This document shows positions 33,016 to 39,767 of a DNA stretch of 64,000 bases, one piece after another. Within the stretch, counting starts at the first letter, position 1; each line of letters starts with the position of its first letter. The stretch lies in contig CBDCCI010000001.1 in assembly GCA_965214705.1 (NCBI GenBank), forward strand, positions 288,001 to 352,000. Reading direction: 5' to 3'. The notes below the pieces were generated by a model. The model had not been told where the DNA came from, made no database searches, and saw nothing but the letters and a program-made list of their open reading frames with translations. Position numbers and translations under genes: made by a program. This DNA is from Alphaproteobacteria bacterium (GTDB lineage: Bacteria > Pseudomonadota > Alphaproteobacteria > UBA828).

Positions 33016-34179
33016 ATGGCGTCGGTCACCAAGGATCAGGTTCTGGCGGCGCTCGCTGACGTCCTGGACCCGGACAGCGGACAGAGCGTGGTCGCGAGCG
33101 GCCTCATCAGCGGAGTCGTGGTGAAAGACGGCAACGTGGGCTTCGCGCTGGAGGTCGATCCGGACCAGGGCGCGGCGAAGGAGCCGCTGCGAAAGGCCTG
33201 CGAGACTGCGGTGGAGCGGCTCTCCGGCGTGCTTTCGGTGACGGCCGTGCTCACCGCCGAGCGGCCAGCAGGCGGCCAGGCGCAGGGACAGGGCCGCGGT
33301 CATTCGCATGGCCACGGCCACGGTCACGCCCACGGCGGGCAGGCCCAGGCGCGGGCGCCGCAGGCCGATCAGCTCCTGCCAGGGGTGAAGAGCGTCATCG
33401 CCATCGCATCCGGCAAGGGCGGCGTGGGCAAGTCGACGACTGCCGTCAACATCGCGACCGCGATGGCTGCCCAGAATGTCCGAGTCGGTCTGCTCGACTG
33501 CGACATCTACGGGCCTTCGATTCCGCGCATGCTCAACCTGAGTGGCCAGCCGGAGATGGTGGGCGAGCGCACGCTCCGCCCCATGGCGAACTACGGGATC
33601 AAGTGCATGTCCATCGGCTTTCTGGTGGCCGAGGATACCGCCATGATCTGGCGCGGGCCCATGGTGATGCAGGCGCTGGAGCAGATGATGCGGGACGTCG
33701 ATTGGGGCGAGCTCGACGTGCTGCTCTGCGACCTGCCGCCCGGCACCGGCGATGCGCAGCTCACCATGGCGCAGCGGGTGCCGCTCACCGGCGCGGTGAT
33801 CGTCTCCACGCCGCAGGATATCGCCCTGCTCGACGTGACGCGGGGCATCAACATGTTCCAGCAGGTCAACGTGCCGATCTTCGGGGTCGTCGAGAACATG
33901 AGCTATTACGTCTGCCCCGCGTGCGGCCACCGGGCCGAGCTGTTCCACCACGGCGGGGCGCGCGAGACCGCGCGCCGGCTCGGCGTGGACTTCCTGGGCG
34001 AGATACCGCTCGATATCTCGATCCGGACGACGTCCGATGCGGGCCGGCCGATCGTGGTCACCCAGCCCGAGAGCCCCCACGCCGAATCCTATCGGCAGAT
34101 CGCCGCTGGCCTGATCGACAAGGCCACCTCGGCGGTGAGCGGCGCCGGCCGCGCCCAGCCCCGCATCGTCATGATGTGA
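33016..34179 (+). CDS. mrp: Mrp/ApbC Fe-S cluster carrier ATPase
   Basis: SGKGGVGKST, DIYGPS, WRGPM, DLPPGTGD, STPQ, ENMS..CPACG. Confidence 0.96.
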   Translation: MASVTKDQVLAALADVLDPDSGQSVVASGLISGVVVKDGNVGFALEVDPDQGAAKEPLRKACETAVERLSGVLSVTAVLTAERPAGGQAQGQGRGHSHGHGHGHAHGGQAQARAPQADQLLPGVKSVIAIASGKGGVGKSTTAVNIATAMAAQNVRVGLLDCDIYGPSIPRMLNLSGQPEMVGERTLRPMANYGIKCMSIGFLVAEDTAMIWRGPMVMQALEQMMRDVDWGELDVLLCDLPPGTGDAQLTMAQRVPLTGAVIVSTPQDIALLDVTRGINMFQQVNVPIFGVVENMSYYVCPACGHRAELFHHGGARETARRLGVDFLGEIPLDISIRTTSDAGRPIVVTQPESPHAESYRQIAAGLIDKATSAVSGAGRAQPRIVMM

Positions 34180-34191
34180 GCGCACCCGTCG

Positions 34192-34878
34192 ATGGCGAAC
34201 AGGCGGTCGGACGGCGTTCTCTCAAGACTAGCGGCCCTTTCGGGCCGCAGGCGCTGGATCGGCGCCGGCATTGTCGCCCTGCTCTTGGCAGCGCTGGTAG
34301 CGGCCGGGTGCACGCCCTCGGTTCCGGATCGTCAGCAGGACCTTTGCGCCGTCTTCCACCAGCATCCCGACTGGTACGACTACGCCAAGGAGGCGGAGGA
34401 CACGTGGGACGTGCCGGTTCACATTCTCATGGCCTTCGTGCATCACGAATCGAGCTACCGGAGCGATGCGCGGCCGCCACGCAAGTACGTCCTCTGGTTC
34501 ATCCCGTGGGGGCGCGTGTCGTCAGCCAAGGGGTACGCCCAGGCGCAGGACCCGGCCTGGGAGGACTACACGAACGAGCGCGGCTCCTTCTGGCGCAGCC
34601 GCTCTGACATGGAGGACGCCCTCGATTTCATCGGCTGGTACAACCACGGGACGTCGCGTCAGCTCGGCATCGCCAAGACCGACGCACGCAACCTCTATCT
34701 CGCTTATCACGAGGGACGCGGCGGCTACCGGCGCGGCACCTGGAAAGAGAAGCCCAAGTTGCAACAAATCGCGAAGCGGGTGGCCGAGACCGCCAGTCGC
34801 TACGAAGCGCAACTCAAGCGCTGCGAATCGGAATTCCGCTGCGATTCCTGGTGGGAGGTGTGGCCCCTCTGTAGCTAG
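34192..34878 (+). CDS. SLT-like transglycosylase lipoprotein
   Basis: Lipobox AAGC, HESSY, SSAKGYAQA, DFIGWY, YLAYHEG. Confidence 0.75.
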   Translation: MANRRSDGVLSRLAALSGRRRWIGAGIVALLLAALVAAGCTPSVPDRQQDLCAVFHQHPDWYDYAKEAEDTWDVPVHILMAFVHHESSYRSDARPPRKYVLWFIPWGRVSSAKGYAQAQDPAWEDYTNERGSFWRSRSDMEDALDFIGWYNHGTSRQLGIAKTDARNLYLAYHEGRGGYRRGTWKEKPKLQQIAKRVAETASRYEAQLKRCESEFRCDSWWEVWPLCS

Positions 34879-34908
34879 GGCGTGTCCGTCTTTGACGGAC
34901 GCGCGACA
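34876..34908. repeat. 33-bp TAG-terminal palindrome, copy 1
   Basis: TAGGGCGTGTCCGTC-TTT-GACGGACGCGCGACA; begins at the SLT gene stop codon. Confidence 0.6.
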
Positions 34909-34990
34909 GGCCGCGACTGCGGCCCGCCGCCCCTGCGGCGCCCTCGCGGAGGTGTCGGCCGTAGGCCGGCTGCCGTGAGCGATAAATAGG

Positions 34991-35023
34991 TAGAGCGTTT
35001 CCGTGCAAAGCGGAAACGCTCTA
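34991..35023. repeat. 33-bp TAG-terminal palindrome, copy 2
   Basis: TAGAGCGTTTCCG-TGCAAAG-CGGAAACGCTCTA, perfect 13-bp stem; right end is the thyX stop. Confidence 0.75.
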
Positions 35024-36064
35024 GGGCTCCCGCCCCAGCACCGCCATAAGCTCGCGCCACTCGCGCTTGGAGAGGCCGCTGTTCTCCTGATCAACCACCT
35101 CGCCCGCCAGCATGCGCTTGACCACGTCGAGCCCGCCTCTCGAGAGCGATGCGGCATCCATCCCATAGTCCCGAAAGGCCTCGTAGGTCGCCGGCACCCA
35201 GCGCGCGACGACCTTGTCGAGGATCACATCGGCATAGGCGCGGATCTCGTACTGGGCGTGGGCGTCGGCCCGCAGCGACAGGAAGTGCAGCAGGTTGTGC
35301 AAATCGATTTTCCAGTAGAACTGGGTGTAATAGTTGACCGGCAGCGCCGCCCGCGCGAGCTCGCGGGCGAGGCCGGCGCGGTCGGGGTCCTTCTTCTCGC
35401 CGTCCTCGTTCTCGTTGAGCAGGTTCTCGTAGACGCCGTAGGCACGGGTTGAGATCCAGTCGAGGCGCGAGAGCGCCTGGCGGGCCTCCGCGTCCGCCAG
35501 CGAATCGTCCCGGCCCTGCTTGTTGGCGGCGGACTGCGCGGCCAGCTCCTGACGAGTCTCCGCCGCCTCCCGCCACCCGAACAGGTCGTCCATGCCGCTG
35601 CTGCTGGCCCGCTGGCGGTCGATCTGCTCTTCCCGGACAGACTGGAGATGCGCTGGGTCGGGCACGTAGAATTCGCGGTCGAGCCTGGAGTAGCGCGCGG
35701 AATACTCGTTGACGCTGGCGGTGCGGTGGCGGAGCCACTGGCGGGCGACGAAGATTGGCGCCTTGATGTGCAGCTTGAGCTCGCACATCTCGAAGGGCGT
35801 CGTGTGACGATGGCGCAGGAGGTAGCGGATCAGCGCGCGGTCCTCCCGCACGCGCCGCGTGCCCGCGCCGTAGGAGACCCGCGCCGCCTGCACGATGGCG
35901 GCATCGTCCCCCATGTAGTCGATCACCCGGACGAAGCCGTGGTCGAGCACGTCGAAGCGCTCGTAGAGGATCGACTCCAGCGCCGGCACCGTGGCGCGCC
36001 TGGTCTTCTCCCAGGCGGCGCGCTGGGCCTCGATCTCCGCCCGCTTGTGGTCGTCGATCGGCAT
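35021..36064 (-). CDS. thyX: flavin-dependent thymidylate synthase
   Basis: [30 protein letters not shown] signature, ARELAR, HAQYEIR; start placed at MPIDD. Confidence 0.96.
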
Positions 36065-36189
36065 GGGCGAGGGACGTCTCCGGTGAGGTCGAACGGCAAT
36101 CCGCGTTGCGATCATACCGCGCTCCCACAACCGTGTGCACAGGTGCCGCGGCCACTTCCCATACGCGCTTCGAGCACCTATATTGTCGG

Positions 36190-36470
36190 GGTCGGCGGGA
36201 GACCGTCGACTATGGCGATAAACGCTGCTCGAAATAAGCGTTGCGGACCCGGGGGCAGTACCCGGCGCCTCCACCATCCCTTGAGCGGGCGGCTCAAGTT
36301 GCGGGGGCGAACCAGGATCGACGTGCGTGGTAAAGGTGTGGTTTTCGCCCGGCATGGTACCGCCGTTATCGGGCCAACTCAGAGGTGCGAACGACAATGA
36401 AGTCGCACTCGCTGCCTAGCATCGCTAGGTAAGCGCGGCTTGGGGGGCGCCGGGCAACAGAAGCCCCCCG
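36190..36470 (+). ncRNA. ssrA: two-piece (circularly permuted) tmRNA; tag [10 protein letters not shown]
   Basis: Acceptor piece ending GGACCCGGGGGCAGTACCCGGCGCCTCCACCA (36276), hairpin intervening segment, GGGGGCGAACCAGGATCGAC (36303), tag frame 36387-36419, 3' GGGGGG..GGCAACAGAAGCCCCCC; CCTATAT -10 upstream; 5' end approximate. Confidence 0.95.
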
Positions 36471-36499
36471 CTAACCCGGCGTTCCGGCCGGGACCATAA

Positions 36500-36640
36500 A
36501 TCACTGGGCACTCATACGAACGAGAAGCTTCGCGTGCGTTTCGCGCGACGCAGGCCGTGACCGTGGCGAGGCTTCCGGGCTAAGCTAACCGGTGGCGGCG
36601 AACCGGCGTGGTTTGGGGGCATCGGGCAACGGCAGCCCCG
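36500..36640 (+). ncRNA. diverged second copy of the tmRNA tag domain and 3' structure
   Basis: GGGCACTCATACGAACGAGAA aligns with GGGCCAACTCAGAGGTGCGAACGACAA; GTGGTTTGGGGGCATCGGGCAACGGCAGCCCC aligns with GCGGCTTGGGGGGCGCCGGGCAACAGAAGCCCCCC. Confidence 0.6.
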
Positions 36641-36667
36641 GTTGAGAGGGTGGACACGGACGCGGCA

Positions 36668-37297
36668 ATGAGCAAGGACCTCATCGGTTACAACACGCTG
36701 GTCGAGAACGGCCTGCGCTCGGTGGTTCGCGAGGCGCTCCGCCGCGTCGCAGAGGAGGGCTGGCCCGGCACCCACCACGCCTACATCACCTTCAAGACCG
36801 CAGCCCCCGGCGTCGAGGTGCCGGATTTCCTCCACACGCGCTACCCGGACGAGCTCACGATCGTGCTTCAGCACCAGTTCTGGGGCCTGGAGGTCGAGGA
36901 CGATTCCTTCTCCGTGACGCTGAGCTTCAACAAGGTGGGCCAGCGCATCGTCGTCCCCTTCGCGGCGCTCACCAGCTACGCCGACCCGTCGGTCAAATTC
37001 GGTTTGCAGTTTGGGGTCGCGCCAGAGGCGCGCGGAGAAATGACCGCGCCGGAGGCGCGCGGAGAAATGACCGCGCCGGAGGCGCGCGGAGAGATGTCCG
37101 CGCCCGAGGCGAGCGAAAAACCAGCGAAGCGGAAGGCGCGCGGAAAGAAGGCTGAGCCGGAAGCGCGCGCAACAGGGTCGGTGCCGGCAGCGGGTGGGGA
37201 AAAGGCCCCGCCAGAGGCGGAAGCGGAAGCGAATACGGACGCGCCGGGGTCGAACGGCGAGAAAGTCGTTGCGCTCGACCACTTCCGCAAGAAGTAG
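36668..37297 (+). CDS. sspB: ClpXP adaptor SspB (alphaproteobacterial type)
   Basis: PGTHHAYITF, YPDELTIVLQHQFW, DPSVKFGLQF, C-terminal VVALDHFRKK ClpX-binding motif; follows ssrA. Confidence 0.95.
   Translation: MSKDLIGYNTLVENGLRSVVREALRRVAEEGWPGTHHAYITFKTAAPGVEVPDFLHTRYPDELTIVLQHQFWGLEVEDDSFSVTLSFNKVGQRIVVPFAALTSYADPSVKFGLQFGVAPEARGEMTAPEARGEMTAPEARGEMSAPEASEKPAKRKARGKKAEPEARATGSVPAAGGEKAPPEAEAEANTDAPGSNGEKVVALDHFRKK
37019..37111 (+). repeat. 27-bp coding tandem repeat (APEARGEMT x3.4) in SspB linker
   Basis: GCGCCGGAGGCGCGCGGAGAAATGACC near-perfect copies at 37019, 37046, 37073. Confidence 0.9.
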
Positions 37298-38071
37298 CTA
37301 CTCCTCCCACTCCAGGTTGCCGCAGACCCCGATCAACTGCCCGGTGATGTTGCTCGCCGAATCCTGCGCCAGAAAGAACGCGGTGTCGGCGACCTCCTCG
37401 CTGGTGATCAGCGCGCGCGTGGAGATGAAGCTGACGTAGCGCTCGTGCGCTTCCTCGACCGTCTGCCCCCGCTCCTTGGCGAGGTGCGTGATCAGGCGCC
37501 GCCCGCGCGGGTTGTCGATGATGCCGGGCAGGATGGCATTGCAGCGGATGCCGGAAGGGCCGAGCTCGCGCGCGAGGTTCATGGTCATGCCGTCCACCGC
37601 GCACTTGGTGGTGATGTAGGAGGTCCTGAGCGGCATCCCCACGCGGGTGGAGGCGGTGGAGATATTGATAATCGCGCCCGAGCCCTGCGCCTTCATCACC
37701 GGCACTGCCCGCTTGATGCAGTGGAACATGCTGTTGAGGTTGACGTCGATCACGCGCTGCCACTCGTCGTCCTCGATCTCCTCCACCGGCGCGCGCGGGC
37801 CGCTGATGCCGGCGTTGTTCACCAGCACGTCGAGCCTACCGAGGGCCGCGAGCCCCTCCTCGAACCAGCGCGCGACCGCTTCCGCCGAGCCCACGTCGGC
37901 GATGCTGCCGGACATGCCGGGGTTGGCGCCGAGCACATCCTCCAGGCTCTCTTCGGTGAGGCAGCACATGTGAACGCGGGCGCCGGCGGCATGGAAGCGC
38001 TCGGCCACCGCGCGGCCGATGCTGCGGCCGGCACCGGTGACCATCACGGCCTGTGGGGTGTCGCTCGCCAT
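37298..38071 (-). CDS. SDR family oxidoreductase
   Basis: TGAGRSIG, NNAG, YITTK, ITGQLIGVCG. Confidence 0.92.
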   Translation of the reverse strand: MASDTPQAVMVTGAGRSIGRAVAERFHAAGARVHMCCLTEESLEDVLGANPGMSGSIADVGSAEAVARWFEEGLAALGRLDVLVNNAGISGPRAPVEEIEDDEWQRVIDVNLNSMFHCIKRAVPVMKAQGSGAIINISTASTRVGMPLRTSYITTKCAVDGMTMNLARELGPSGIRCNAILPGIIDNPRGRRLITHLAKERGQTVEEAHERYVSFISTRALITSEEVADTAFFLAQDSASNITGQLIGVCGNLEWEE

Positions 38072-38294
38072 GGCAGGCTCCTGGGCTCGCGGGGATGACA
38101 GCGCGAGGATAGGGTGGCGGCGGGCACGCGCCAAACTCTCCGCGCCGTTGCCCTTGGGCACTTTGTGCGTCAACGGGGCTCACGTGGGCGTGACCCCGGA
38201 CGGCGGCCGATTGCACTGCGAGCCCCGCACCACTACGTCATCATTGTCCCGCTGCGGCCTCTTGCCTGCGGCGGTCAACGCGAAGGGCTTCCCG

Positions 38295-39767
38295 ATGGAC
38301 GAATCCCGGCACATGACGCCAGACGAGTTCCGCCGGTGCGGAGCCGCACTCATCGAGCGCATCGCCCGCTACATGGAGGAGGTGGAGCAGTACCCCGTGC
38401 TCTCGCAGGCGGAGCCGGGATCGGTCCGCGCGCGCCTGCCAAGTGCCGCGCCCGAACAGGGCGAGCCTTTCGCCGACCTGCTGCGCGACATCGACGAGAT
38501 CGTCCTTCCCGGTCTCACCCACTGGCAGTCGCCCAACTTCTACGCCTACTTCCCGGCGAACGCCTCGGGCCCGTCGATCCTCGGCGATCTGCTCTCTTCC
38601 GGGTTCGGAGTGCAGGGCATGCTCTGGGCCACGAGCCCGGCGTGCACCGAGCTCGAGACCCATGTGCTCGACTGGCTGGTCGATCTGCTCGGGCTGCCGG
38701 AGGGATTCAAGTCGAGCGCGGCCGGCGGCGGCGTGATCCAGGACAGCGCCTCGAGCAGCACGCTCACCGCGCTTATCGCCGCGCGCGAACGGGCGAGCGC
38801 CGGCACGGTCAACCGGCATGGCGCGGGCCGCGGCCCGGACGGCGCGGAGGGGCCGCGGCTCACCGTCTACACCTCCCGGCACGCGCACTCATCCATCGAG
38901 AAAGGGGTGAAGATTGCGGGCCTGGGGCGGGAGAACCTGCGGCTCATCAATGCTGACGAGCGCCATGCGATGCAGGTCGACGCGCTGGAGGCCGCAATTG
39001 CCACGCACCGCGCAGCCGGGGCCGTGCCTGCGATGGTGTGTGCGACCGTGGGCACGACCTCCTCCGGCGCGGTGGACCCGCTCCGCGCCATCGGCGCGCT
39101 CTGTCGGCGGGAGGGCATCTGGCTCCATGTCGATGCCGCGCACGCCGGCAGCGCCACCATCTGCCCCGAGCACCGGGGCCTGATCGACGGGCTGGAGCAC
39201 GCCGACAGCTACACCTTCAACCCGCACAAGTGGCTGCTCACCAACTTCGACTGCAGCTGCTTCTGGGTCGCCGACCGCGCCGCGCTGATCGAGGCGCTGA
39301 GCGTGCTGCCGGAATACCTGCGCAACCGCGCGACCGAATCGGGCGCGGTGATCGACTACCGCGACTGGCAAATCCCGCTCGGCCGGCGCTTCCGTGCGCT
39401 CAAGCTCTGGTTCGTGATCCGCCACTACGGCGCTGAGGGCCTGCGCGCCCACGTGCGGAACTGCGTCGCGTTGGCCGACTGGTTCGCCGCGCAGGTGGAG
39501 GCGCACGCCGAGTTCGAGCTGGCGGCACCGGTCTCGGCCGGACTGGTCTGCTTTCGCCACCGCGCGGGCGATGCGCTCAACGAGGCCCTGATGAACCGGC
39601 TCAACGAATCCGGCGCGCTCTACCTCACCCACACCTGGCTCGACGACCGGCTCGTGCTGCGCCTTGCGGTGGGCGGGACAGCGACCCGCCGCGCGCATGT
39701 CGAGAAGGCCTGGGCGCGGATCGTCGAGACCGCCGGCGCGCTTTCCGCCGAGGAGTTTGCCGCCTGA
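38295..39767 (+). CDS. PLP-dependent aromatic L-amino acid decarboxylase (DDC-like, group II)
   Basis: PGLTHWQSPNFYAYFP, SPACTELE, GGGVIQ, HVDAA, FNPHKWL, DYRDWQIPLGRRFRALKLW. Confidence 0.92.
   Translation: MDESRHMTPDEFRRCGAALIERIARYMEEVEQYPVLSQAEPGSVRARLPSAAPEQGEPFADLLRDIDEIVLPGLTHWQSPNFYAYFPANASGPSILGDLLSSGFGVQGMLWATSPACTELETHVLDWLVDLLGLPEGFKSSAAGGGVIQDSASSSTLTALIAARERASAGTVNRHGAGRGPDGAEGPRLTVYTSRHAHSSIEKGVKIAGLGRENLRLINADERHAMQVDALEAAIATHRAAGAVPAMVCATVGTTSSGAVDPLRAIGALCRREGIWLHVDAAHAGSATICPEHRGLIDGLEHADSYTFNPHKWLLTNFDCSCFWVADRAALIEALSVLPEYLRNRATESGAVIDYRDWQIPLGRRFRALKLWFVIRHYGAEGLRAHVRNCVALADWFAAQVEAHAEFELAAPVSAGLVCFRHRAGDALNEALMNRLNESGALYLTHTWLDDRLVLRLAVGGTATRRAHVEKAWARIVETAGALSAEEFAA

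Follow-up and report, generated by a model that had tools for sequence, protein, structure and literature searches.

A solo MITE end and a degenerate copy of the ssrA terminal hairpin in the spacer between a permuted tmRNA gene and sspB

The ssrA-sspB junction

The window, a stretch of 64,000 nucleotides from an alphaproteobacterial contig, contains a permuted (two-piece) tmRNA gene, ssrA, followed on the same strand by sspB and preceded by a divergently oriented thyX-like gene (Table 1). The tmRNA gene is complete, as the original prediction had it, and single: in addition to the full-length alpha_tmRNA match, the newer Rfam model tmRNA_permuted matches 36214-36419 with 147 bits, and across 34000-39000 Rfam gives no second tmRNA match, the sole one ending at 36472. 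ARAGORN places its tmRNA* at 36182-36510, reaching 38 nt beyond the end of the Rfam model, and we consider the Rfam boundary the better guide to the 3' end of the gene; the overrun at 36473-36510 may have encouraged a reading in which the tmRNA continues downstream. The terminal hairpin of the gene, here called T, is strongly conserved, its last 34 nt being identical in all eight loci compared and its last 40 nt nearly invariant across 23 loci. A consensus scan lists a promoter-like site at 36156-36184, inside the span of the alpha_tmRNA model. The 5' side of T (36443-36454) is also 92% complementary over 12 nt to 36261-36272, the 3' strand of the T arm and acceptor stem, which may reflect chance or a pairing in the precursor. 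The assignment of sspB comes from Pfam, an NCBIfam search of the gene being without a match; its linker (37018-37115) is built from 3.6 tandem copies of a 27-nt unit with 92% match, which encodes a nine-residue motif resembling APEARGEMT.

Table 1. Features of the thyX-ssrA-sspB region, in positions of the window
Feature	Position	Strand	Basis
thyX-like gene (flavin-dependent thymidylate synthase), divergent from ssrA	35021..36064	-	Pfam Thy1, 176.7 bits
ssrA, permuted (two-piece) tmRNA gene, single and complete; tag of 10 protein letters (not shown)	36152..36472	+	Rfam alpha_tmRNA, 236 bits, model positions 1-355 of 355
T, ssrA terminal hairpin; six G-C pairs, loop with GGGCAAC	36433..36472	+	last positions of the Rfam model
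Lineage-specific filler holding the resume-like motif	36473..36542	+	in L001-L003 only, of 23 loci; chance-level likeness to the tmRNA gene
Spurious open frame TNEKLRVRFARRRP*	36516..36560	+	closed by the TGA that the repeat motif CCGTGACC contains
Solo MITE end, one ~40-nt terminal inverted repeat from a ~270-nt family, outward toward sspB	36543..36582	+	nhmmer match C2:324544-324588 = window 36544-36588, E 3.8e-13
Short, variable stretch; complementary in part to the 5' half of S, with which it makes a quasi-palindrome	36587..36605	+	RNAalifold helix 1; mean pairwise identity 0.707 (nine S-bearing loci)
S, degenerate copy of T (paralogous fragment from the 3' end of ssrA)	36606..36639	+	alignment score 33, 0 of 500 shuffles; unique in the window's own genome
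Native sspB upstream region including the ribosome-binding stretch	36640..36667	+	alignable to the sequence directly after T in outgroup loci; mean identity 0.893
sspB (ClpXP adaptor for tagged proteins)	36668..37297	+	Pfam SspB, 139.9 bits

The anatomy of the junction and its distribution among relatives can be read directly from 23 related loci, from each of which the junction was extracted. sspB follows ssrA directly in 21 of 21 genomes of the genus and in most of the relatives sampled, and the adaptor gene neighbours ssrA in Caulobacter as well. The locus is like other alphaproteobacterial ssrA-sspB pairs in that a permuted ssrA is followed directly by sspB, and differs from them in that the gap has grown by insertions from about 20 nt to 195 nt (36473-36667). 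Across the 23 loci the gap ranges from about 17 to 445 nt: it measures 17-21 nt in L019, L021 and L022, 44-76 nt in L024, L020, L017 and L018, and 124-445 nt in the rest of the genus. The MITE end, hereafter the repeat end, is found in 16 of the 23 loci (L001-L016), and S can be aligned in nine (L001-L003 and L008-L013). Tested against the T of the same locus, S is significant in eight of the 20 loci long enough to be tested; L013, where the locus is cut inside T, is not significant alone. In L004-L007 and L014-L016 the scores against the locus's own T lie at the level of shuffles, and candidate remnants of S in L004, L006 and L016 were rejected, their best scores being at shuffle level (190, 193 and 216 of 300). 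The sequence 3' of S aligns with the sequence directly after the gene end in outgroup loci.

A flank tree was computed for 22 loci from thyX and the start of sspB, with L013 (cut locus) and L023 and L025-L030 (distant) excluded. This tree is poorly resolved, with six of 19 inner branches open, and is too weak to order events. It recovers the S-bearing group with an SH-aLRT value of 88, with L007 nested inside it, and gives L021 and L022 a very long branch, for which a non-homologous upstream region is the probable cause.

The stretch between ssrA and sspB was originally read as a paralogous segment of the tmRNA gene, that is, as a tandem second tag domain with its own resume-like context, open frame, extra hairpins and 3' structure. 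We aligned three parts of the spacer locally to the tmRNA gene, comparing each with 500 dinucleotide-preserving shuffles. The third part (36587-36668) scores 33, pairing 36606-36639 with 36433-36467, a score reached by none of the 500 shuffles. Within this pairing lies a direct repeat of 28 nt (36440-36467 versus 36612-36639, 82% identity), and the second G-run/GGGCAAC/C-run element of the original prediction is present. The first part (36473-36542), which holds the supposed resume-like context, scores 16, a value at chance level that 271 of the 500 shuffles equal, and its best local match differs from the one originally named. The match at the resume codon comprises 10 nt with nine identical, a kind of match expected about twice per comparison of this size by our own arithmetic. 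The second part (36543-36586), covering the repeat element, likewise scores 16, also at chance level (equalled or bettered by 289 of 500 shuffles). Paralogy with the tmRNA gene thus holds for 36606-36639 and does not extend to 36473-36542 or 36543-36586. Small palindromes are visible around 36575-36606, in agreement with the extra hairpins, and the partner strand of the tRNA-like part is missing from the region, as had been noted.

Searches of the spacer as a whole point in the same direction. Searched alone with cmscan at the laxest filters and E up to 10, 36473-36668 gives no match to any tmRNA family, the two Rfam matches that it does give (E 0.5 and 1) belonging to unrelated families. RNA folding of the spacer is no better than that of shuffles (z = 0.29, with 109 of 200 shuffles at least as stable) and reveals no pseudoknot-like structure; Tandem Repeats Finder reports no array in the spacer, and the consensus scan no promoter-like or terminator-like site within it. 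A direct repeat of 7-9 nt, GCTAACC, occurs just after T and again just after the repeat end; its length is what we would expect by chance in 200 nt, and it was left out of the argument for that reason.

The tag-like frame and the MITE terminal repeat

Comparison of 36150-36900 with 41 related genomes reveals that query positions of about 378-437 (36527-36586 of the window) match dozens of unrelated places within the genus. In the window's own genome, 26 blastn-short matches stack on 36543-36582, and there are none elsewhere in the spacer. A repeat-end profile made from 22 copies, six from the window's own genome and 16 orthologous ones from relatives, gives 101 nhmmer matches in that genome at E<=10, of which 33 fall below 1e-3. 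Repeat-end matches pair divergently in sixteen cases, 13 of them with a spacing of 192-220 nt, and the 13 full elements so delimited align over about 270 nt, with terminal inverted repeats of about 40 nt and in two orientations or subtypes (e.g. C1:580874-581147 and C3:2604320-2604593). Copies begin and end with TA, and a TA duplication is indistinguishable from the element's own termini. Being a short element with terminal inverted repeats and many copies, the ~270-nt repeat is a MITE family. Its interior contains a 15-nt stretch that is like the loop of S with one mismatch; this stretch is not among the blastn-short matches at E<=1, and we treat the likeness as a coincidence.

The position of the repeat end bears directly on the tag-like frame. 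An open frame does exist at 36516-36560, and it translates to TNEKLRVRFARRRP* as originally predicted. Its last six codons, including the stop, fall within the terminal repeat of the MITE (from 36543), and in relatives the repeat matches extend back to 36527 of the window, which takes in five further codons of TNEKLRVRFARRRP. tmRNA tags as a general rule end in a hydrophobic degron of the Ala-Ala type. In this genome the TNEKLRVRFARRRP frame starts with Thr, and it has neither a resume codon of the alanine type nor an end of the Ala-Ala type; nothing in it resembles a degron-coding tag. The tag-like part is found in three of the 23 related loci (L001-L003), in all of which the frame is open and the DNA is 94-96% identical. 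The peptide tails that it would add in these three loci (TNEKLRVRF, ANEKLRARL and TNDGLRARP, each followed by ARRRP* from the repeat) differ by non-conservative changes, and in short-spacer loci the same stop closes quite different frames.

These data allow us to evaluate the proposal that the segment is a second, alternative tmRNA tag module adding a basic, non-degron tail. In its favour are the existence of the open frame and the 10-nt stretch that resembles the resume region. Against these stand the missing covariance-model match, the chance-level likeness of the upstream context, the initial Thr, a stop codon that comes from a mobile-element repeat, the restriction to three of 23 loci with no conservation of the peptide among them, the lack of a pseudoknot-like structure and the absence of the tRNA-like partner strand; we regard such a module as vanishingly improbable. 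More generally, of the characters tested for a tmRNA coding domain of the alphaproteobacterial two-piece type, namely covariance model, tag frame, conservation and terminal helix, none is present. A full-text literature search found no description of a tandem second tag domain in a permuted tmRNA gene.

The repeat end as a candidate sspB promoter

The pattern of conservation within the repeat end is suggestive of a different function. In 16 of 16 orthologous repeat ends, the blocks CCGTGACC and GCTAAGCT are invariant and occur at a fixed spacing, with variation in the bases between and around them. Upstream of sspB the repeat end has a mean identity of 0.915 over the 16 loci, versus 0.473 for the 12 nt that precede it. 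We further examined the placement of solo repeat ends in the window's own genome (including C1:3850227, C3:1577225 and C1:2431072), accepting gene starts near them only with third-position G+C support. Thirteen of 19 have such a start, co-oriented, no more than 120 nt downstream of them, compared with 767 of 3000 random positions. An earlier control, which counted any ORF of >=90 aa as a gene, was dropped: 1178 of 2000 random positions pass it, an uninformative outcome in a G+C-rich genome, and the third-position G+C test took its place.

Based on the invariant blocks separated by a varying spacer, and on the placement of solo ends upstream of co-oriented genes, we infer that the repeat end at 36543-36582 may act as an outward-reading promoter that drives sspB, and that solo repeat ends of this family may generally carry such a promoter. 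The repeat end can be read as a -35/-10 pair, GTGACC and TAAGCT separated by 18 nt, with four of six and three of six matches to a consensus that is that of E. coli; a sigma-70 consensus scan does not list the repeat end as promoter-like. The -10 regions of alphaproteobacteria differ from the E. coli consensus. The spacer is like known MITEs with solo ends carrying outward promoters in that 36543-36582 is a terminal inverted repeat, at least 13 full copies are present in the genome and solo ends favour sites just upstream of co-oriented genes; it differs from them in that only one end is present here and that the putative promoter activity follows from the conservation pattern and was not seen by the sigma-70 consensus scan. 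In L019, L021 and L022, with their gap of about 20 nt, sspB transcripts probably come by read-through from ssrA or from a promoter within that gene.

We looked for expression data that cover the junction. No RNA run of this organism was found, the RNA runs containing at most 0.19 of the sampled words, and four sequencing runs of unspecified kind do contain the stretch. In metatranscriptome X1, a mixed sample whose library may hold DNA, a 200-nt contig joins 36346-36485 to 36552 onward and comes from a short-spacer relative; a second contig from X1 covers 36577-36709, contigs of mixed samples being prone to break at repeats.

Rate of change and origin of the hairpin copy

Rates of change were measured directly in the nine S-bearing loci, a sample chosen by having S, which is also the feature whose rate was measured. 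Mean pairwise identity is 0.843 for S (minimum 0.606) and 1.000 for T, the latter over the eight loci with a full T. In the same nine loci the codon positions of sspB have mean identities of 0.962 (first), 0.978 (second) and 0.829 (third). When the T-like helix is moved onto S, 68.2% of cells are paired and no compensatory pairs are found; the same pairing percentage is obtained with controls slid by -1 and +3. Six of the nine copies of S keep the loop motif GGGCAAC intact, and in three it is altered. Given an identity near that of sspB third positions, a helix that is not kept and a loop that has changed, S evolves as unconstrained sequence would, at close to the neutral rate and without the constraint that holds T invariant. 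Weak constraint on S may nevertheless exist, since its conservation is not below that of third codon positions (0.843 vs 0.829). The search for conservation and compensatory change has gone against a retained tag module, the tag-like part being confined to three of 23 loci and S to nine, with a T-like helix in S that has no compensatory pairs.

RNAalifold proposes an alternative hairpin between the 5' half of S and the nucleotides immediately upstream; it has 13 pairs, is 94% paired and shows compensatory changes at three pairs. The paired percentage is reached by 10 of 500 shuffles and the compensatory-pair count by 40 of 500; the hairpin was derived from the same sequences on which it was scored, and related sequences yield such values without constraint. 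It is a weak hint, and would represent S together with a partial inverted copy of it, a quasi-palindrome, and not evidence of function. One could alternatively suppose that the S-containing stretch is a functional leader hairpin of sspB, derived from the tmRNA end, which tunes translation or stability, possibly via a factor that recognises the tmRNA terminus. The location of S after the conserved repeat end and ahead of the start of sspB, the high pairing and three compensatory pairs of the RNAalifold helix and the fact that S is still recognisable in nine species would be consistent with this. However, S is missing in seven of the 16 repeat-end loci and in all seven outgroup loci, the tmRNA-like helix and loop motif are not maintained, S diverges at a rate similar to that of third codon positions, folding of the spacer as a whole is no better than for shuffles and the covariation lies within the range of unconstrained related sequences, and we consider a leader function very unlikely. 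A yet slimmer prospect is that in the nine species the captured copy of the tmRNA terminal hairpin and its inverted partner form a long stem that couples sspB expression to a factor or nuclease handling the tmRNA 3' end, in which case the level of the SspB adaptor would track that of tmRNA. The original alternatives of a retained tag module or a tmRNA-mimic leader of sspB accordingly find little to recommend them, there being no covariance-model match, a frame that is mostly mobile-element repeat and present in three of 23 loci, and a helix that is not kept.

With respect to its origin, S lies downstream of ssrA on the same strand and matches its last ~35-40 nt. Integration of islands into tRNA and tmRNA genes is known to leave a restored gene and a displaced 3' fragment in the same orientation, as two reports describe it (PMC4383910, PMC4131195). 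S could by analogy be the displaced original 3' end of ssrA: a site-specific integrative element would have inserted into the gene end, brought a replacement T and later been almost entirely deleted, leaving the repeat end and filler. The alignment of the sequence after S with that directly after T in outgroup loci fits this scenario, as it implies that S sits at the ancestral gene-end position relative to sspB. Several observations are at odds with it. The 133 nt between T and S consist of filler and MITE end and contain neither an integrase nor any other element gene, and in none of the 21 genomes of the genus are ssrA and sspB separated by an island. Among 49 genomes of the order, matches to the ssrA end number exactly one in 47 and none in two, and never is there a second. 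Two distant genomes with a gap of 2-4.5 kb between ssrA and sspB carry metabolic genes there (P450, flavin oxidoreductase, MFS transporter, metal hydrolase and dipeptidase genes) and no integrase. The ssrA end (36380-36480) has no match in a phage collection and the spacer none in a plasmid collection, both collections being limited. S moreover shows the states of the ingroup T and not those of the outgroup, with the base T rather than C before the G-run and, in three of nine loci, GCT rather than ACT after the C-run. Finally, the repeat end is present in 16 loci and S in only nine, the other seven having no significant remnant. We regard displacement by an integrative element as unlikely.

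We infer instead that S most likely arose as a later, local duplication of the ssrA end, in favour of which are the ingroup-specific states of T that it bears and the wider distribution of the repeat end; template switching is a possible route, as suggested by the partial inverted copy that adjoins S. The earlier notion of a decayed former piece thus survives to the extent that a 34-nt copy of the ssrA 3' hairpin is present and evolves like sequence without constraint, but what was copied is the terminal hairpin only, not the coding piece. Of recombination with a foreign tmRNA, which had been proposed along with it, no sign was found: there is no integrase between the copies, no second copy elsewhere in 49 genomes of the order and no match in the limited phage and plasmid collections. 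S resembles the ssrA and tRNA-gene fragments found beside intact genes (the Islander tDNA-plus-fragment signature; PMC4383910, PMC4131195) in being a short, degenerate, co-oriented and non-functional 3' copy downstream of the gene. It differs from them in that the gene end and the fragment are only 133 nt apart, with no integrase, island or foreign donor seen, and in that the gene is permuted, which makes the coding piece's terminal hairpin, and not a tRNA-like acceptor or T arm, the end that was copied.

Together these observations make it likely that 36473-36667 is an intergenic spacer between a single functional tmRNA gene and sspB, composed of a decaying ssrA 3' fragment and a MITE end, and not a second tmRNA module. 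The ancestral-type arrangement would be one with ssrA and sspB about 17-76 nt apart, as in the wider family. In this genus the gap would have been filled by the MITE terminal inverted repeat, which would supply most of the apparent tag frame and its stop, and by S, a duplicate of ~34-40 nt of the ssrA terminal hairpin placed after a partial inverted copy of itself. The repeat end would be the only part of the spacer that looks selected, as an outward promoter for sspB, and S at most a passive passenger in the sspB leader. The region is ordinary and adds one more example to two known kinds, ssrA fragments next to ssrA and solo MITE ends. As a caution, a mobile-element end and a short duplication of a gene end can mimic a tag frame and a tmRNA hairpin beside a real tmRNA gene, and such fragments can mislead annotation, as in the 38-nt overrun of ARAGORN. 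The junction also offers a small, clean example of fast change between ssrA and sspB within one genus (~17 to ~445 nt), and points to a testable instance in which a proteolysis adaptor gene would have gained its promoter from the end of a mobile element. Among the longer spacers (~238-445 nt), those of L014, L015, L016 and L007 contain further short repeats, such as a G+C-rich palindromic unit that is repeated in L014, and an A+T-rich stretch is common to L014-L016.
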